The position numbers and the translations under genes are program-made. A stretch of DNA of 64,000 nucleotides from Octopus vulgaris (lineage: Eukaryota). The notes below the pieces were generated by a model. That model was given only the letters and a program-made list of their open reading frames with translations. It did not search any database and was not told the origin of the DNA. The stretch covers positions 38,564,001 to 38,628,000 of the forward strand of contig OX597840.1 in NCBI GenBank assembly GCA_951406725.2, in the 5' to 3' direction. This document shows positions 1,456-59,445 of the stretch, piece after piece (the first letter of the stretch is position 1; each line of letters starts with the position of its first letter).

Positions 1456-2481
1456 AGTATATATATATTTATATATATACATTTCTGTATCTATATATAT
1501 ATATGTAATGAGAGAGTGAAAGAGGGAGAGAAAGAAAGAGAGAGGGAAGAATATAATTTTATCCGTTGCATATTGTTTGTTCTTCATTCCTTATATACAC
1601 ACAAATACACACCAAACAAGCATGCACAGGGCCATGCGCGCGTAAAACAACTACAAGAAAAACAAACACACGATGGCTGATATAAAAATTTAAATTTAAC
1701 GTTCATTTTCGAAAATTAATTTCGTTCCTTGGCAATTTAGAATTTCCCCTCAGCTTTACCAAAGGGAAACATTATAAAAGCGTCTAAAGTCATTTAAGTC
1801 TATAACTTTCTGTGATGGATCTCATTTTCCAAAATCTTCTTCATATTTTGTGGTTTATATAAAGCTATGAACACTATCTCAGAATGCGGAAAGAGTGCAT
1901 AGTTAAAATGACAATGGACGCTCATCAGGAAAGCATTAATATGTAAACTGCATACAAAAATGCTATTAAAAAATGCAGTTGATTATTCAGAAATCACCAT
2001 GGGTAATATAAAAACGATGTGAGCTAGATCTTTAGAAAAAGGCCATATAACATACAAAAAATGTATAATGTGTATACATCCACAAATAAGTTTATATATA
2101 ATATAAGCCTCAGAATTTTATTTACGTATATATGTAGAATATTGCGTATATTATAGCCACACAGTTTAGATTTTATATTCCATAATTTCTGAGATGCATA
2201 CACATATACATCAATGTATATGTACATACTTACATGCGGTTTATATAACCACATGCAAAAGACACACTAAAACTCAGGCACGCAGATACTCGTGTATACG
2301 TGTGTGTGTGTGTGTGTGTTTGTGTGTGCATATAAATATATATATATATAAACGTATATATATCCATGCATACGTATATACACACACATATGCTTGACTA
2401 TTTATATATAAGTATGTTTACATATTTGCATGTGTATATATATATATCAAAATACACATATGTATGTATATATCTGTGTGT

Positions 2482-2486
<5 letters not shown>

Positions 2487-2516
<30 letters not shown>

Positions 2517-2542
2517 CATATATATACACAGATACATATATA

Positions 2543-2607
<65 letters not shown>

Positions 2608-2617
2608 GTATATATAA

Positions 2618-2649
<32 letters not shown>

Positions 2650-2672
2650 GTATATATATATACATATATATA
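2487..2672. repeat. (TA)n microsatellite
   Basis: Direct inspection. Confidence 0.95.
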
Positions 2673-2894
2673 CCTGATAGTATTTCTGATAATATTATTT
2701 GCGTGCATGTGTAGGATGAAAAGACGATAGTTATTAATACGAAGTAATTTGAATATTAAATTGTATAACACCAAAGGCTGTATAAACATTGCAATAAAGA
2801 ACGACTAAAGCTACTTTATTATAAACCACAAGCACAAACAAAGACACACAAAAATCAACATACATACATATATATATTCATATATACACATATA

Positions 2895-2969
<75 letters not shown>

Positions 2970-4684
2970 GCTTGTTTGTGTGTGTGTGAGTGTTTGTATG
3001 TGTGTATACAGATTGAGAAATATGCATAGAATGTGAGAGATTATGTACATATATATACGCACACATAGGTATATTTATAAAAGCATGTATTTGTGTGAAG
3101 ACGTATAACATGAGAAACACACGAGAACAATAGCATAACACAAAGGTGTCTTAATATTTCTTGCGGTCTTTATATGATACTATATTATATTATATTATAT
3201 TATATTATATTATATTATATTATATTGCATTGTATTATTTGTATATTATATTATTTTATTTAGTCATTTATAGCCAAAGCGAGGAATCCTTTGTTTGAAA
3301 TTTCTTGTTTATTTTATCCCATGTTTTGATGAATAAAACAAACAAAAAAACTCGGTGATATCGCCATCATTATCGCCATCGACATCGTCGTCGTCGTCGT
3401 TTTCGTTGTCATCATCGTCATCTTAATCATCATCATAATCTGTTGAGTATATAGACGCCCATATGAATGCACATACATAGTTGAACGTACAATAAATACA
3501 TATACATGTTATACCAACAAACACACACAAATATACACAAATGTTCATACATAGATATCTCTCTTTCTCCCTCTCGCTCCACTATAGACACATAGATACA
3601 TGCATGCTGCTTATACACACACACACACACACACACATTTATATATATATATACATACATCCATACATATATATATGCATGTGTGTGTCGATGTACGCAA
3701 TGACATCCTCATAGATGTGTATCTATACTTGGCGGTTGCTGAATAAATCTGTATACATCCTCCGAGGTGTATGTCAGCAGCCATATACATTCTTTTGAAC
3801 CTCCTCTCAATTTGCTTTTGTTTTAATATAATTTTAACTATGAGCATAATTAAGTACCTTGGGTTCACACCTGTTCAAACAGGAGTAATTTCTACACGTG
3901 CTTTCGTGTAGACCAAGAAATGTATTCTCACATATACATGTGTTACTTTGTATATTTGTATGTAAGGGTATGGTGTTTGGGTGTAGTATTACAAGCACAC
4001 GTAAATACATACAAGTGGGTGGATAAACGAAAGAGAAAAGCCACTCAACGCATTTAGTAGACATTATTTGTATTATTAGTTAAAAACGGTTTGATTCCGA
4101 TCCGTGCGACTTAAATCTTCGCGGACCTTCAATAGTTACCCGTCTGTTTCAGGTTTAGACTCCCGAATATATATATATAATAAATGCACTGAAATACTGT
4201 TGAAACAATTTCTGTTCCTTCGGTGTCTTACAATAAATGTCACACAAATGCATGTTTAAGCAGTAGCAATTCTTTAAATCTTTGCATTCAATCTGCACAT
4301 TTCTAGATTCTATATAAGATGCCAAAGAAAGACTTAGGAAACGATCGAAATATTGTGCATGTCTCTAATTATGCGTAGTACAGTAATAAAAAAAAGATAT
4401 CGGCATTAGTATTGATAGAGTACGGTGTTAAATTTCACTCATTCTTCATTGGCGAATTGATATTTACAGTATTTAATAAAAAGTCTCTCCTGATCCCTGA
4501 TTTGTGATTCTCAATCTTGAAGATCGAGGAAGTACTTGAAATCGTAGGTATAGAAATTTACCGCGTTAATATCGATAAATTATACACACACATTTGCATA
4601 AAATGTATATATAAATGTATGTATAGCATAAGAATATAGATATAATTAAACTAATAATCATATATTAATTACAAAATTGGTCAT

Positions 4685-5501: not shown

Positions 5502-6067
5502 TAGGGTTGTCCGGAAAGTTCGTGCCTATATTTAACAGCTTACCTTTCGACTTATTTTAGAACATGGTCGAGTCTATAGAATAGGATTTGACTACACCTC
5601 CATTTAGAGCACAGTTTAAGATATCTTTATGTGGAAGAATGTTTATGTTCCTATAACCTGTGTTAATTCTATAACCCTTTAAAATGGAAGATCACACGAT
5701 TCATTTTCGGCACTTGATGCTTTGGGAAACAGACAAAAATTGCTGCATTTCGGCTGGGATGTGTTACCCCACCGTCCTTATTCACCAGATATTGCTCCTT
5801 CGGATTTCCACTTATTCAGGTCTCTGCAGAATAGTCTTAAAGGTAAAAATTTCAATTCTTCGGATGACGTAAAAAGATACTTTGATGAATACTTAGCCTT
5901 GAAATCACTGCAATTCTGGGAAGAGGGTATTTTCAAGTTAAAGGAAACATGGAGACGCATTGTGCAACAAAATGGTTCGTATTTGGTTAATTAAAAATGT
6001 AATGGCAAGTATTTATTGACCTTTTTCTTTCCTTTAAAAATCGGCGCAAACTTTCCGGACAGCCCAA
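5502..6067 (+). mobile_element. Internally deleted mariner DNA transposon
   Basis: Imperfect TIRs TAGGGTTGTCCGGAAAGTTCGTGCC / GGCGCAAACTTTCCGGACAGCCCAA flanked by TA. N-terminal MEDHTIHFRHLML is joined to C-terminal GWDVLPHRPYSPDIAPSDFHLFRSLQN...GIFKLKETW (YSPDLAPSD motif). Confidence 0.95.
5684..5994 (+). pseudogene. Mariner transposase remnant (N-terminus plus C-terminus, middle deleted)
   Basis: ORFs 5684..5872 and 5722..5994; YSPDIAPSDFHLF motif. Confidence 0.9.
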
Positions 6068-10192: not shown

Positions 10193-10425
10193 TGTTTCTT
10201 TCTTACCCACAAGGGGCTAAACATAAAGATGGCAAACAAGGACAGACAAACGGATTAAGTCGAATATATCGACCCCAGTGTGTAACTGCTACTTATTTAA
10301 TCGATCCCTAAACGATGAAAGGCAAAGTCGACCTCGGCGGAATTTGAACTCAGAACTTAACGGCAGACGCATTACTGCTAAACATTTCGCCCGGCGTGCT
10401 AAAGTTTCTGCCAGCTCGCCACCTT
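10193..10425 (-). mobile_element. SINE family C
   Basis: Minus-strand head GGTGGCGAGCTGGCAGAAAC, B box GAGTTCAAATTCC and central GACTTTGCCTTTCATC; homologous to 25433, 37128, 38321 and 60121. Confidence 0.85.
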
Positions 10426-31706: not shown

Positions 31707-31742
<36 letters not shown>

Positions 31743-32001
31743 CAATTAAGAACAACTACTTAATAAGGAAAACTTAACAAGAAATTGTCAGGATAGCGTG
31801 AAAACCTCATAAGAGAATAAATTTCGAAAATAATTATTTCTTATTGAACATACTAATTTATATATAGAGGGCATTATACATACATGCCAGCGGGCATTAT
31901 ACATACATGCCACACGCTAAGAGGGACAATTAGTCATTTCTACCAAAAATATTACTAATCCCACCGAGTGCAATTTTTCAAAGTAAGACATTTAAAAATA
32001 T

Positions 32002-32049
32002 AGACCTGTATCACAGTGATTTCATACTTACGTACTCATCAGCAGGCCT
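32002..32049 (-). ncRNA. Type I hammerhead ribozyme H1, copy 1
   Basis: Reverse complement of AGGCCTG-CTGATGA-GTAC-GTAA-GTAT-GAAA-TCACTGTGA-TA/CAGGTCT. Confidence 0.88.
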
Positions 32050-32480
32050 GAATGTATCATACATAAACAAACGACCCTGCCCCGCTTAAGTCGATCAGCT
32101 AACTGATCAACATCAACGAAGCACATGGGTGAGTTTACATATATTACATCCTGTAAATGGCATACTTTTACGAATTGCATTTCGGGAGAGGAAAAGTTTT
32201 TTCGGAATAAAAATTTAGCAATTAAGGACAACTACTTAATAAGGAAAACTTAACAAGAAATTGTCAGGTAGATAGCGTGAAAACCTCATAAGAGAATAAA
32301 TTTCGAAAATAATTATTTCTTATTGAACATATTAATTTATATATAGAGGGCATTATACATACATGCCAGCGGGCATTATACATACATGCCACACGCTAAG
32401 AGGGACAATTAGTCATTTCTACCAAAAATATTACTAATCCCACCGAGTGCAATTTTTCAAAGTAAGACATTTAAAAATAT

Positions 32481-32528
32481 AGACCTGTATCACAGTGATT
32501 TCATACTTACGTACTCATCAGCAGGCCT
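32481..32528 (-). ncRNA. Type I hammerhead ribozyme H1, copy 2
   Basis: Identical motif 479 bp from copy 1. Confidence 0.88.
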
Positions 32529-32953
32529 GAATGTATCATACATAAACAAACGACCCTGCCCCGGTCGTGAAATGACTAATTGGTAGAAATGACTAATTGT
32601 CCCTCTTAGCGTGTGGCATGTATGTATAATGCCCGCTGGCATGTATGTATAATGCCCTCTATATATAAATTAATATGTTCAATAAGAAATAATTATTTTC
32701 GAAATTTATTCTCTTATGAGGTTTTCACGCTATCTACCTGACAATTTCTTGTTAAGTTTTCCTTATTAAGTAGTTGTCCTTAATTGCTAAATTTTTATTC
32801 CGAAAAACTTTTCCTCTCCCGAAATGCAATTCGTAAAAGTATGCCATTTACAGGATGTAATATATGTAAACTCACCCATGTGCTTCGTTGATGTTGATCA
32901 GTTAGCTGATCGACTTAAGCGGGCAGGGTCGTTTGTTTATGTATGATACATTC

Positions 32954-33001
32954 AGGCCTGCTGATGAGTACGTAAGTATGAAATCACTGTGATACAGGTC
33001 T
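32954..33001 (+). ncRNA. Type I hammerhead ribozyme H1, copy 3
   Basis: Helix I AGGCCTG/CAGGTCT (7 bp, one G-U), core CTGATGA, helix II GTAC/GTAT with GUAA tetraloop, GAAA, helix III ATCAC-T-GTGAT. Predicted cut after A32994. Confidence 0.9.
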
Positions 33002-33432
33002 ATATTTTTAAATGTCTTACTTTGAAAAATTGCACTCGGTGGGATTAGTAATATTTTTGGTAGAAATGACTAATTGTCCATCTTAGCGTGTGGCATGTAT
33101 GTATAATGCCCGCTGGCATGTATGTATAATGCCCTCTATATATAAATTAATATGTTCAATAAGAAATAATTATTTTCGAAATTTATTCTCTTATGAGGTT
33201 TTCACGCTATCTACCTGACAATTTCTTGTTAAGTTTTCCTTATTAATTAGTTGTCCTTAATTGCTAAATTTTTATTCCGAAAAAACTTTTCCTCTCCCGA
33301 AATGCAATTCGTAAAAGTATGCCATTTACAGGATGTTAAATATGTAAACTCACCCATGTGCTTCGTTGATGTTGATCAGTTAGCTGATCGACTTAAGCGG
33401 GGCAGGGTCGTTTGTTTATGTATGATACATTC

Positions 33433-33480
33433 AGGCCTGCTGATGAGTACGTAAGTATGAAATCACTGTGATACAGGTCT
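33433..33480 (+). ncRNA. Type I hammerhead ribozyme H1, copy 4
   Basis: Identical motif; predicted cut after A33473, 479 nt from copy 3. Confidence 0.9.
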
Positions 33481-33612
33481 ATATTTTTAAATGTCTTACT
33501 TTGAAAAATTGCACTCGGTGGGATTAGTAATATTTTTGGTAGAAATGACTAATTGTCCCTCTTAGCGTGTGGTATGTATGTATAATGCCCGCTGGCATGT
33601 ATGTATAATGCC

Positions 33613-33708
<96 letters not shown>

Positions 33709-38320: not shown

Positions 38321-38740
38321 AGGTTGCGAGATGCCGGAAACGTTAGCACGCCGGACGAAATGCTTTGCGGTTTTTCGTTTGCCGCTACGTTCTGAGTTCA
38401 AATTCCGTCGATGTCGACTCTACCTTTCATTCTTTCGGGGTCTATTAAATAAGTACCAGTTACGCACTAGGGTCGATGTAATCGGCTTAATCCGTTTGTC
38501 TGTCCTTGTTTGTCCCCTCTATGTTTAGCCCCTTGTGGGTAGTAAAGAAATAGGGATTTCGTCTGCCGTTACGTTCTGAGTTCAAATTCCGCCGAGGTCG
38601 ACTTTGCCTTTCATCCTTTCGGGGTCGATTAAATAGGTACCAGTTACGCACTGAGGTCGATATAATCGGCTTAATCCGTTTATCTGTCCTTGTTTGTCCG
38701 CTCTGTGTTTAGCCCCTTGTGGGTAGTAAAGTAATAGGTA
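38321..38740 (+). mobile_element. SINE family C, tandem dimer
   Basis: Module starts at 38369 and 38553, with the beginning of a third (GGTA) at 38737; period 184. Confidence 0.88.
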
Positions 38741-40827: not shown

Positions 40828-41389
40828 ATTATCATACTATCTATCTACAAACACACACACACACATGCACACATATATAAAATGTTGAATGGAAAGAGGT
40901 TGCTGTTTCATAGAAATGTATTTTAGACAAGCGTACACCGGTTTAGCTCCATACCTATTCATATACTATGAATTTCATTAATTTGTGTTAGTATTAGTGT
41001 TAACACTTATTCAGTTTCAGTTGTCGTTGTTGATGTTTTCATCCACGCAATATACAACGGAATTTTAATAACATAACATAAGGAAAAGGGAAAGTTTGAG
41101 CACATAAAAAATCAATTTACTTGTATAATAATCAATATCATATCGCCTACGTACGTTTCAATGTCTTTCCTTCATTCATATTTTGCAATCAAAATTGCAT
41201 TATGCAATTAAAAGGTAGAAGAAATCTCTTCAGGGCAAAAATTGGCAAATATTCGGTCACATCCTAATGGATGACGAGTTGCTTACAGACCGAGATAGCA
41301 GCATGGTTTTTGTGCTTGTCTGTGTGAGCATGTTTGTATATATATATATATATATGAGATAGATATATATATGTATGTATGTATGTACG

Positions 41390-49647: not shown

Positions 49648-49694
<47 letters not shown>

Positions 49695-49958
49695 AAATAT
49701 TAATATCTACGTATATGTATATATATATATATAAAATAAATATAAGAGAGTGGTCACTATATGGCTCACTCTAGCACCAGTTAATCCAAAAGGTTTCAAC
49801 CACAAAAATACATGTTTCCCATGAAAGTCAGTACGATTGTTAGCTCACACGGACAGGGCAAATAAAAAATAACAAAAATACAGATTATTTTGGGACAATT
49901 GTTTCGCTATTAATGAATTAAATGTAATTTTACTTATAAAAAAATCCACTTGAATTAA

Positions 49959-50016
<58 letters not shown>

Positions 50017-50206
50017 CAGAAACATATTAATATCTACGTATATGTATATATATATATAAAATAAATATAAGAGAGTGGTCACTATATGGCTCACTCTTGC
50101 ACCAGTTAATCCAAAAGGTTTCAACCACAAAAATACATGTTTCCCATGAAAGTCAGTACGATTGTTAGCTCACACGGACAGGGCAAATAAAAAATAACAA
50201 AAATAC

Positions 50207-50300
50207 AGATTATTTTGGGACAATTGTTTCGCTATTAATGAATTAAATGTAATTTTACTTACAAAAAAATCCACTTGTAGCTCCTCAGCCAAAACTATCT
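50207..50300 (-). ncRNA. Type I hammerhead ribozyme H2, copy 1
   Basis: Minus strand AGATAGTTTTGG-CTGAGGA-GCTA-(43-nt loop)-TAGC-GAAA-CAATTG-TC/CCAAAATAATCT. Palindromic helix III ACAATTGT, GUC triplet, cut between 50219 and 50218. Confidence 0.88.
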
Positions 50301-50741
50301 GGATGAAATCCACTCAATCACACGCCAGATTTTACCATAACGATAAATACGCGTGTGGTTCAATTGATTACATCCGACGTTATAATTCAAATGCCCCAAC
50401 TAACAGCGCGCCAAATTTTCACGGAAAACAAATACAGCATTTAGAAATAAATGCAGCATAATTATAATTAATTGATAAGGGTGAGAGAATTAGATACTAA
50501 TTTAATAGTATATCTATTCTACACCAAGTGGCCTAGTGCTCCGAGAAACCTGGATTATTATAATATTTTATAATATATTATAATATTTTTACAAAATAAA
50601 TATAAGAGAGTGGTCACTATATGGCTCACTCTAGCACCAGTTAATCCAAAAGGTTTCAACCACAAAAATACATGTTTCCCATGAAAGTCAGTACGATTGT
50701 TAGCTCACACGGACAGGGCAAATAAAAAATAGCAAAAATAC

Positions 50742-50835
50742 AGATTATTTTGGGACAATTGTTTCGCTATTAATGAATTAAATGTAATTTTACTTACAAA
50801 AAAATCCACTTGTAGCTCCTCAGCCAAAACTATCT
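50742..50835 (-). ncRNA. Type I hammerhead ribozyme H2, copy 2
   Basis: Same motif 535 bp away. Confidence 0.88.
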
Positions 50836-51175
50836 GGATGAAATCCACTCAATCACACGCCAGATTTTACCATAACGATAAATACGCGTGTGGTTCAATT
50901 GATTACATCCGACGTTATAATTCAAATGCCCCAACTAACAGCGCGCCAAATTTTCACGGAAAACAAATACAGCATTTAGAAATAAATGCAGCATAATTAT
51001 AATTAATTAATAAGGGTGAGAGAATTAGATACTAATTTAATAGTATATCTATTCTACATCAAGTGGCCTAATGCTCCGAGAAACCTGGATTATTATAATA
51101 TTTTATAATATATTATAATATTTTTACAAAATAAATATAAGAGAGTGGTCACTATATGGCTCACTCTAGCACCAG

Positions 51176-51236
<61 letters not shown>

Positions 51237-51782: not shown

Positions 51783-51786
<4 letters not shown>

Positions 51787-52150
51787 ATTATTGGTGAATT
51801 GAAGAAATGGAGCTGAACGCAGATTGAGCAGAAATCGTTTTATTTCATTCTACACGTGTTTCGAAAGGCACAAATTACCAAAATCCGATTGATAATTTGG
51901 TAATTTGTGCCTTTCGAAACACGTGTAGAATGAAATAAAACGATTTCTGTTCAATCTGCGTTCAGCTCCATTTCTTCAATTCACCAATAATGTTTTAATT
52001 TCAATTATCCGCACCAACGCACGGTTGCAACACCATATGGTTGTACCTCCAACCGTGCTGTTTACTGCTGTGATTTTTGCTACTAAGGTATCGGTTAAAC
52101 TTTTGATTAATCTACTACAAGATTATTCATCTTTCTATTTCACATAATAT
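51783..52150. mobile_element. Family H3 repeat as a 100-bp fold-back
   Basis: 51783-51882 versus 51896-51995 inverted (1 mismatch, 13-nt loop). Each arm has only the 3' half of the H3 hammerhead; the right arm probably continues to about 52150. Confidence 0.85.
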
Positions 52151-58808: not shown

Positions 58809-58919
58809 CTTCATGCAGTAATACTTTCATTAATGTTGGCTCAAAATCTGAAATGTGTGAGAGGAAGGATTAAAATGTCGATATTATTTCCTCAGTATTT
58901 GAACGTTACTTTTACTCTT

Positions 58920-59048
58920 GACCCGGAGAACGTCACTGGCAAATTTGTTTTCAGCAGGATTTGAACTCAGAACGTAAAATGCTCGGAGAAATGCTCCAAT
59001 GATTTCTTCTGTCCAACGCTCAAATGAATCTTCTAATCCTTCGCACTC
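58920..59048 (-). mobile_element. Old SINE family C-like fragment
   Basis: GGATTTGAACTCAGAACGTAA. Confidence 0.45.
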
Positions 59049-59445
59049 GTGCTGCAACTTAAAGCACTTAAAATCATTATATTCCGGAGCATATTGATCA
59101 GCAACATATGTCTTGTGCAAAACATTAAAATAACCGTTATTTTTTTTCACTGACCAAGCAATTATTGATCTCCTAATGTCTAATATCGGACATAATTTCC
59201 CACCAGAACATTAGAGAAAAGAAAAAAAAAACTCATTTCTATTCCCAGAAATTAGATTTTATTAAAGCTGATTGAGAGGGAATAGAAACTACGTTTGAAA
59301 TAATGGCCTAGAGTAATTTCCAACAATTGTTCCTTGGAGACTCCTAAGATATACTGGAAACGGTCAAGGCCGGAGACTTGGCTCCACCTTCTTACTAAGA
59401 ATTAAAACAAAAGTATTACACTTGCTCCAGGTAAACCGTCATATG

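Follow-up and report, generated by a model that had tools for sequence, protein, structure and literature searches.

The closest described systems are the animal non-LTR retrozymes and the hammerheads in the pseudo-LTRs of Penelope-like elements (PLEs). In the consulted parts of their accounts, the retrozymes are tandem arrays of non-coding units with less than 45% GC and one type I hammerhead per unit (PMC7229834; 10.64898/2026.07.22.740005). At least two consecutive motifs are complete (10.64898/2026.07.22.740005), helix III is weak with a palindromic tetraloop, and the monomer is self-paired (PMC7229834; PMC4209133). PLE hammerheads are also of type I, with a palindromic helix III and a tandem and partial-tandem layout (PMC4209133; PMC11167929; 10.1101/2021.04.23.441226); their insertions have an internal 3′ end downstream of the ribozyme, a microsatellite target and inverted joints. 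For PLE-type insertions, a preference for (TA)n, tails and inversions are described (10.1101/2021.04.23.441226). The parts of the animal retrozyme accounts consulted here cover no cephalopod (PMC7229834; 10.64898/2026.07.22.740005). Among the papers listed, literature searches returned no octopus hammerhead by title or start of abstract, and subscription papers may hold examples; "retrozyme" in the cephalopod literature gave none among the results listed, and retrozymes combined with editing gave nothing on point by title. Among the papers listed for hammerheads with a long helix II, the relevant one concerns an "extended Helix III", and the supplement of PMC7229834 may hold examples. A survey of octopus circRNAs, in the part consulted, sought back-splice circles and found low levels (PMC9699675).

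The window analysed here, a stretch of 64,000 nucleotides (64 kb), contains an array that matches the retrozyme description: a complete type I hammerhead is present in each of its two successive tandem units, and the monomer is non-coding, low in GC and predicted to be highly self-paired. The 535-nt unit is longer than the ~170-400 nt given in one account (PMC7229834) and lies within the 51-972 bp of another (10.64898/2026.07.22.740005). With PLE pseudo-LTRs the array shares the type I motif, the palindromic helix III, the layout, the internal 3′ end and the microsatellite target, and its relatives share the inverted joints. Unlike PLEs, which hold RT and GIY-YIG domains between their pseudo-LTRs, it has no attached ORF of either kind. 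Helix I is also longer here, with 12 bp compared to 4-5 bp in PLE hammerheads, and the extra nucleotide at A9/G10.1 is missing (PMC4209133). Plant LTR retrozymes, with type III hammerheads in LTRs, PBS and PPT and a 4-bp TSD, differ from the type I, head-to-tail units of the array. We consider it likely that the array is an animal non-LTR retrozyme that is cut to a 535-nt circle and copied into (TA)n by Penelope-like enzymes. The class is already known, and the novelty would lie in the long segmented helix II predicted on a natural type I hammerhead. The host is probably an octopus, judging by the microsatellite-rich texture of the window and a dispersed SINE-like repeat, and such a retrozyme would extend the class to cephalopods.

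Tandem units, hammerhead cores and flanks

The array consists of two near-identical units that differ at 4 of 535 sites, have 32% GC and contain no open frame longer than 48 aa (minus strand) or 87 aa (plus strand), in agreement with a first-pass annotation that had described two non-coding copies 535 bp apart. That annotation had placed the array at 50055..51177; the location was right, and the exact ends are 51178 and 50058. The features are as follows.

50058..51178, minus strand: whole insertion of 1121 nt, in which two 535-bp units are followed by 51 nt that repeat the beginning of the unit
50643..51177, minus strand: unit 1, with three private substitutions, one at 50732
50108..50642, minus strand: unit 2, with one private substitution, at 50474
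50058..50107, minus strand: terminal partial unit, with which the insertion ends on its 3′ side 161 nt past the second predicted cut
50741..50836, minus strand: type I hammerhead 1, core from C3 (50823) to C17 (50754), from descriptor scan, fold and Rfam
50206..50301, minus strand: type I hammerhead 2, predicted cut 50219^50218, from descriptor scan
50823-50817 and 50288-50282, minus strand: CUGAGGA (C3-A9) of copies 1 and 2, from sequence
50812-50770, minus strand: 43 nt enclosed by helix II GCUA/UAGC, from sequence
50765-50762, minus strand: GAAA, from sequence
50754 and 50219, minus strand: C17 of copies 1 and 2, predicted cuts 50754^50753 and 50219^50218
50836-50824/50753-50741, minus strand: helix I of hammerhead 1, from fold
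50766..50816 (likewise 50231-50281), minus strand: extended helix II, from predicted fold
50755..50762 (likewise 50220-50227), minus strand: 8-nt palindrome of helix III, 2 bp and a tetraloop alone, 8 bp between two copies
50219..50753, minus strand: predicted cut-to-cut monomer or circle of 535 nt, matched by a closed contig in sequencing run X14
51177..51228, no strand: 5′-junction tract (TA)26, with a TA microhomology of 2 nt
49963..50058 (50045-50058 and 49963-50012), no strand: (TA)n tracts at the 3′ junction
49733..49952, minus strand: third partial copy, in which only the hammerhead's 3′ half is present, with its C17 at 49894

The hammerhead that the first-pass annotation had read from the minus strand is present in two intact type I copies, and all core positions are canonical: C3U4G5A6N7G8A9, G12A13A14, A15.1-U16.1 and H17, with helices I-III and an open helix I. 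In our descriptor scan, no strict hit occurred in 200 dinucleotide-shuffled 64-kb windows and loose hits occurred at 0.025 per window, compared to seven hammerhead-like hits in the real window: two in the 535-bp array, four in a second array, H1, and one weak hit. The motif together with its tandem layout is far beyond chance. Pattern scans with the motif gave no matches in metagenome contigs, viral contigs and prokaryote genomes.

It had been suggested that standard models may miss this hammerhead, and for Rfam this proved correct. The 535-bp-array hammerhead is absent among the best 150 of 249 matches in the whole window and is not matched in a 1.5-kb scan; the matches listed for these two scans are microsatellite-driven miRNAs and chance-level hits, with no ribozyme among them. 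In a 181-nt slice, RF00163 Hammerhead_1 (Schistosoma-type) is matched with 28.5 bits and an E value of 2e-5, where the core, G10.1-C11.1 and 6 bp of helix I align and a 39-nt insert in loop 2 differs. It is this insert that keeps the score under the gathering threshold of 34. No other type of ribozyme was found in the array by Rfam in the 1.5-kb and 181-nt scans. This hammerhead with its long predicted helix II escapes routine Rfam scans, and ribozyme counts in such genomes may be too low.

H1, an array of 479-bp units at 31740-33617, had been judged dissimilar outside the core, which blastn confirms (best match 15 nt, E 0.14). It carries four type I hammerheads, two on the minus and two on the plus strand, in the inverted arrangement typical of Penelope elements. 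(TA)n lies at both of its outer ends, and its 3′ end is 144 nt past the cut, compared to 161 nt in the 535-bp array. The Rfam score of H1 is only 17.6 bits (HH9). The weak seventh hit, at 41148-41233 on the minus strand, combines a helix III formed by an 8-nt palindrome with a domain II of 67 nt; its other helices are weak (5 and 3 bp), and the minimum-energy structure contains no hammerhead. It represents either a third family in decay or a chance pattern, with 0.025 such hits expected per window.

Outside the span originally given lies a third copy, running from 49952 to 49733. It belongs to a 325-bp local tandem duplication (49651-50277) that comprises the element's 3′ end and the microsatellite flank, and since the flank is included, the third piece appears to be a local DNA duplication rather than a separate insertion. 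The half ribozyme left by this duplication has an intact palindrome and GUC site and could pair with a full copy.

With run X14 as reference, three of the four unit differences are assigned to unit 1 and one of the four to unit 2. They correspond to a divergence age of ~1 My (0.3-2.7) if the host is an octopus, at an octopus rate of JC 0.09 in 25 My taken from the consulted part of PMC13282606. With four private changes in 1070 bp, the insertion looks young. A TSD is not readable inside (TA)n.

Predicted ribozyme fold

The 43 nt enclosed by the GCUA/UAGC helix had been interpreted as a helix II loop, an interpretation that has to be abandoned. Most of these nucleotides are paired in the predicted fold, in which they extend helix II by 13 bp to an arm of 17 bp in three segments: 4 bp next to the core, 8 bp beyond a 2x2 internal loop and, past a 4x3 U-rich internal loop, 5 bp capped by a hexaloop. 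The arm has a z score of -4.2, and its two outer segments pair with probabilities of 0.76-1.0 in every context tried. By comparison, helix II has 4 bp in canonical hammerheads and 7-8 bp in the min-HHRs of PLEs (PMC4209133), and short stems II are stressed in the consulted part of PMC3088659. Covariation has no bearing on the pairs within the array, as two near-identical copies carry none.

Helix I had been described as extendable to about 12 bp, and the fold indeed contains 12 pairs: a run of 6 bp is followed by a G·U pair and a single A·A mismatch, beyond which another 5 bp form. A U follows the first 6 bp, as in the Rfam HH9 consensus, and presumably has a role in the contact between loops 1 and 2. 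At 4 bp, where the terminal loop 2 is absent, the 2x2 internal loop is predicted to sit instead, so that by the Rfam consensus the internal loop and the U of helix I are placed at the canonical loop 2/loop 1 contact positions. A conserved reverse Hoogsteen pair is mentioned for this contact in the part of PMC6155905 consulted. On this modelled geometry, the 2x2 internal loop may stand in for loop 2 in a tertiary contact with helix I. If cleavage is efficient, an internal loop can replace loop 2, and the site would mark where an insert is tolerated.

Helix III, present in the confirmed motif, is of the weak type known from animal retrozymes, with 2 bp plus a palindrome, and the original description had to be corrected on this point. 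The palindrome has an energy of +2.4 kcal/mol as a hairpin and of -6.4 kcal/mol as a duplex between copies; within one copy, helix III is never predicted (probability at most 0.01). An unstable helix III whose palindrome can pair between tandem copies is shared with the double hammerheads of newt satellite 2, axolotl and ASBVd (PMC6155905; PMC7229834, in the parts consulted). Unlike in those systems, the dimer fold is favoured here only for some transcript ends. For the transcript from 50860 to 50190, the unconstrained minimum-energy fold is a double hammerhead, 7.3 kcal/mol below two single motifs. Work by Forster from 1988 is reportedly cited for such double hammerheads. The double hammerhead is the minimum-energy fold at two of six transcript boundaries and costs 3.2-5.8 kcal/mol at the other four, where the single motif costs 2.7-4.2 kcal/mol; its share of the ensemble is 0.3 at one of seven boundaries and 0 at six of seven. 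An obligate double hammerhead was therefore rejected, as the fold is not upheld across transcript ends. Both single-motif and double-hammerhead cutting may be compatible with the array, and we keep both routes because most invertebrate retrozyme hammerheads cut efficiently as single motifs and amphibian ones need dimers (PMC7229834, in the part consulted).

The 535-nt circle folds far better than shuffled sequences (z -6.6, 69% paired; z -5.0 for the plus strand). The probability of helix I in the circle is 0.19 for unit 1 versus 0.99 for unit 2. Base 50732 of unit 1 favours pairing that competes with the ribozyme fold, while helices I and II of unit 2 fold freely, as reported for most animal retrozymes in the part of PMC7229834 consulted. 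The idea that the circle locks the ribozyme off as a family trait was rejected, since it depends on this private base of unit 1.

Relatives in public sequencing runs

The 535-bp repeat is held by 20 of the 24 runs listed, with 58-85% of the sampled words, in 10 studies and under 8 organism labels, which may be sibling species; the run with the best coverage may derive from the source sample itself. Four holders are of whole-genome size (2263-3828 million letters). Another four, presumed to be DNA, contain only 5-6 million letters, which suggests a genomic repeat with many copies. For comparison with four runs we permuted the unit as 50350-50884. No holder is catalogued as RNA; three of the runs discussed below, X10, X14 and X15, are only guessed to be so, and their contigs show neither ends nor strand.

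X14 contains the repeat, with five differences, as one contig of 565 nt (535+30) that joins up with itself into a 535-nt loop; a tandem DNA array would equally produce such a loop. X10 and X15 hold 104 and 71 contigs, respectively, with all 30 bins covered and a 535-nt go-back joint in both. Two further features of X15 are an opposite-strand joint and, at 50596, a loose end rich in TA; the latter lies 3 nt from the 3′ terminus of the array in the window and could be the same locus in another species. A diverged copy, differing at 10 positions over 66 nt, appears in contigs of X10 and X15 on 50474-50540; the record that contains it is longer and continues into a TA-rich flank at one end and into what looks like inverted element sequence at the other.

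No indel at the cut site is listed for the four runs compared. N7 (50819), the free position of the core, occurs as G, C or A; no other core position changes among the 40 of 62 variant rows listed, which include 5 of 5 changes in X14, 18 of 19 in X10 and 27 of 48 in X15. The comparison of core and flanks has low power, since less than one core change is expected by chance in X10. In the variants, four G·U pairs are converted to Watson-Crick pairs, one of them in the 8-bp segment of the helix II arm, which keeps the predicted pairs; two predicted pairs of high probability are broken (50520, 50679).

On the ribozyme strand, the changes in X15 comprise 25 A→G, 10 U→C, 2 C→U and 2 G→A. With sites linked within contigs, the strand bias has a p value of 7e-4 (by base count) and the direction one of 0.001 (35 of 39 transitions). 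X10 has 9 A→G, 4 U→C, 2 C→U and 1 G→A, and its p values of 0.053 and 0.19 are not significant. The neighbour preference of ADAR, a 5′ U or A, is seen at 12 of 13 sites and is likewise not significant (p 0.075). We infer that the A→G excess may stem from A-to-I editing of minus-strand RNA, with a contribution from diverged genomic copies. The array would offer a testable case for the question raised by mussel retrozymes, whether heterogeneity among circles arises from editing, RNA copying or genomic copies.

The raw genomic reads of X23, a run with the species label of the best holder, contain no true read in 1934 million letters. Its 25 partial matches cover an AT-rich patch only (4 of 30 bins), and ~6 reads would be expected from the single locus alone at 2.8 Gb. 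None of the sampled words were found in X21 and X22, which carry the same label. The blank in X23 does not suit a repeat of high copy number; it may mean that the individual truly lacks the element, that the label is coarse or that reads were filtered silently.

Proposed mechanism and alternative readings

In the retrozyme reading, a minus-strand transcript across the array would cleave itself after each GUC, and two copies could pair with each other to compensate for the weak helix III. The released 535 nt would be ligated into a circle by a host RNA ligase, as proposed for other retrozymes, whose monomers were closed by RtcB in vitro (PMC7229834, in the part consulted). A Penelope-like RT-endonuclease would then carry out target-primed reverse transcription at nicked (TA)n, starting inside the RNA. 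Synthesis that begins 161 nt past the cut and runs 2.1 times round would yield the two units and 51 nt. A single pass along a linear cut-to-cut monomer cannot yield 2.1 units with an internal 3′ end, which leaves an uncut multimer or a circle as the template. For an Anolis PLE, the consulted part of PMC11167929 demonstrates initiation within the RNA, on the downstream side of the hammerhead. Among Xenopus retrozymes, only one of nine predicted dimers was cleaved in vitro, according to the consulted part of 10.64898/2026.07.22.740005.

A PLE partner was sought in the 104 filtered ORFs of the window, in which Pfam finds no RT or GIY-YIG match; the single match of the whole set (Pik1) is below the cut-off, and the sensitivity of Pfam for short fragments is limited, as it also misses the mariner-like ORF at 5683-5991. 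This ORF fragment, on the plus strand, has no Pfam match and resembles what we take to be the C-terminal end of a mariner/Tc1 transposase. For the 108-aa ORF at 58887-59210 (minus strand), of ordinary composition, searches of Pfam, the Atlas and a protein database gave no match. According to the part of PMC13282606 consulted, 190 PLE families are present in O. vulgaris, 31 of them recently active; the repeat-annotation supplement of that paper, which comes without sequences, has no match to the motif. A scan with a bacterial promoter model gave a chance-level result (8 versus 7.6), and such a model is not relevant to an animal host.

The first-pass interpretation is supported in part. An independent retrozyme or pseudo-LTR family, as it proposed, fits all tests run on it: the tandem units are non-coding and have a type I hammerhead apiece, (TA)n flanks the array, the 3′ end is internal, one run contains a closed 535-nt loop, and homology to H1 is absent; the lack of reads in the genomic run X23 argues against it. 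The array could instead be debris of an autonomous Penelope-like element, with a pseudo-LTR duplicated at the DNA level or copied from an uncut multimer and with no circle of its own, a reading that we regard as rather unlikely. The consulted part of 10.64898/2026.07.22.740005 finds that Xenopus retrozymes are often homologous to PLE pseudo-LTRs, with 24 of 57 families matching TEs that were nearly all PLEs, and that of PMC11167929 describes PLE insertion in vitro without a need for cleavage. The opposite-strand joint in X15 is a PLE hallmark, and the local 325-bp duplication shows that duplication at the DNA level has taken place at this locus. Set against this are the strong folding of the whole monomer, the lack of an ORF remnant in the 535-bp unit and the contig of X14 that closes on itself in a single record. 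Moreover, none of the joints and loose ends listed (30 letters each) enters evidently coding sequence.

A viroid-like 535-nt circle that is copied at the RNA level and moves between individuals or species, with arrays as occasional reverse-transcribed footprints, is improbable. It would account for near-identical sequence under 8 organism labels, for the blanks in X23, X21 and X22 and for the 104 and 71 variant contigs in X10 and X15 with their dominant A→G and U→C changes; mussel retrozyme circles likewise mismatched database entries (PMC7229834, in the part consulted). However, symmetric rolling-circle viroid-like RNAs carry ribozymes on both strands, whereas the plus strand here has no hammerhead core with one mismatch allowed. 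The holders of whole-genome size and the small putative DNA holders suggest a multi-copy genomic repeat, editing together with diverged genomic copies accounts for the variants without replication, and the organism labels may be sibling species. In a version that we also hold to be a long shot, the circle would be edited by ADAR and spread as RNA across octopus individuals or sibling species, with arrays as sporadic reverse-transcribed footprints that fix A→G variants. If this were true, the circle would be an animal counterpart of a retroviroid, with its hammerhead loop 2 split to carry a 39-nt cargo hairpin.

Co-option of the ribozyme pair by the host, for instance to cleave a pre-mRNA or lncRNA transcribed across the locus, has very little in its favour. 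Read-through transcription would be a plausible source of RNA, as no internal promoter is established, but the window holds no identified host gene, and the insertion, located in a microsatellite, looks young. That the array is an inert minisatellite whose hammerhead-like pattern is dead or arose by chance is barely credible: no prediction for a single copy contains helix III, and Rfam scores the motif under its gathering threshold, but the core is canonical throughout, N7 is its only variation among the rows listed, and strict hits are absent from the shuffled windows.

Some further repeats were noted in the window. An inverted repeat that forms a MITE-like hairpin lies 600 bp from the array, at 51783-51995, with 100-nt arms that are 99% complementary and a 13-nt spacer. 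A dispersed SINE-like repeat, presumably an octopus SINE, is recognized by a shared 20-nt motif at 10313, 37221, 38597 and 60233, and a similar 184-bp unit occurs as a tandem pair at 38373-38738.
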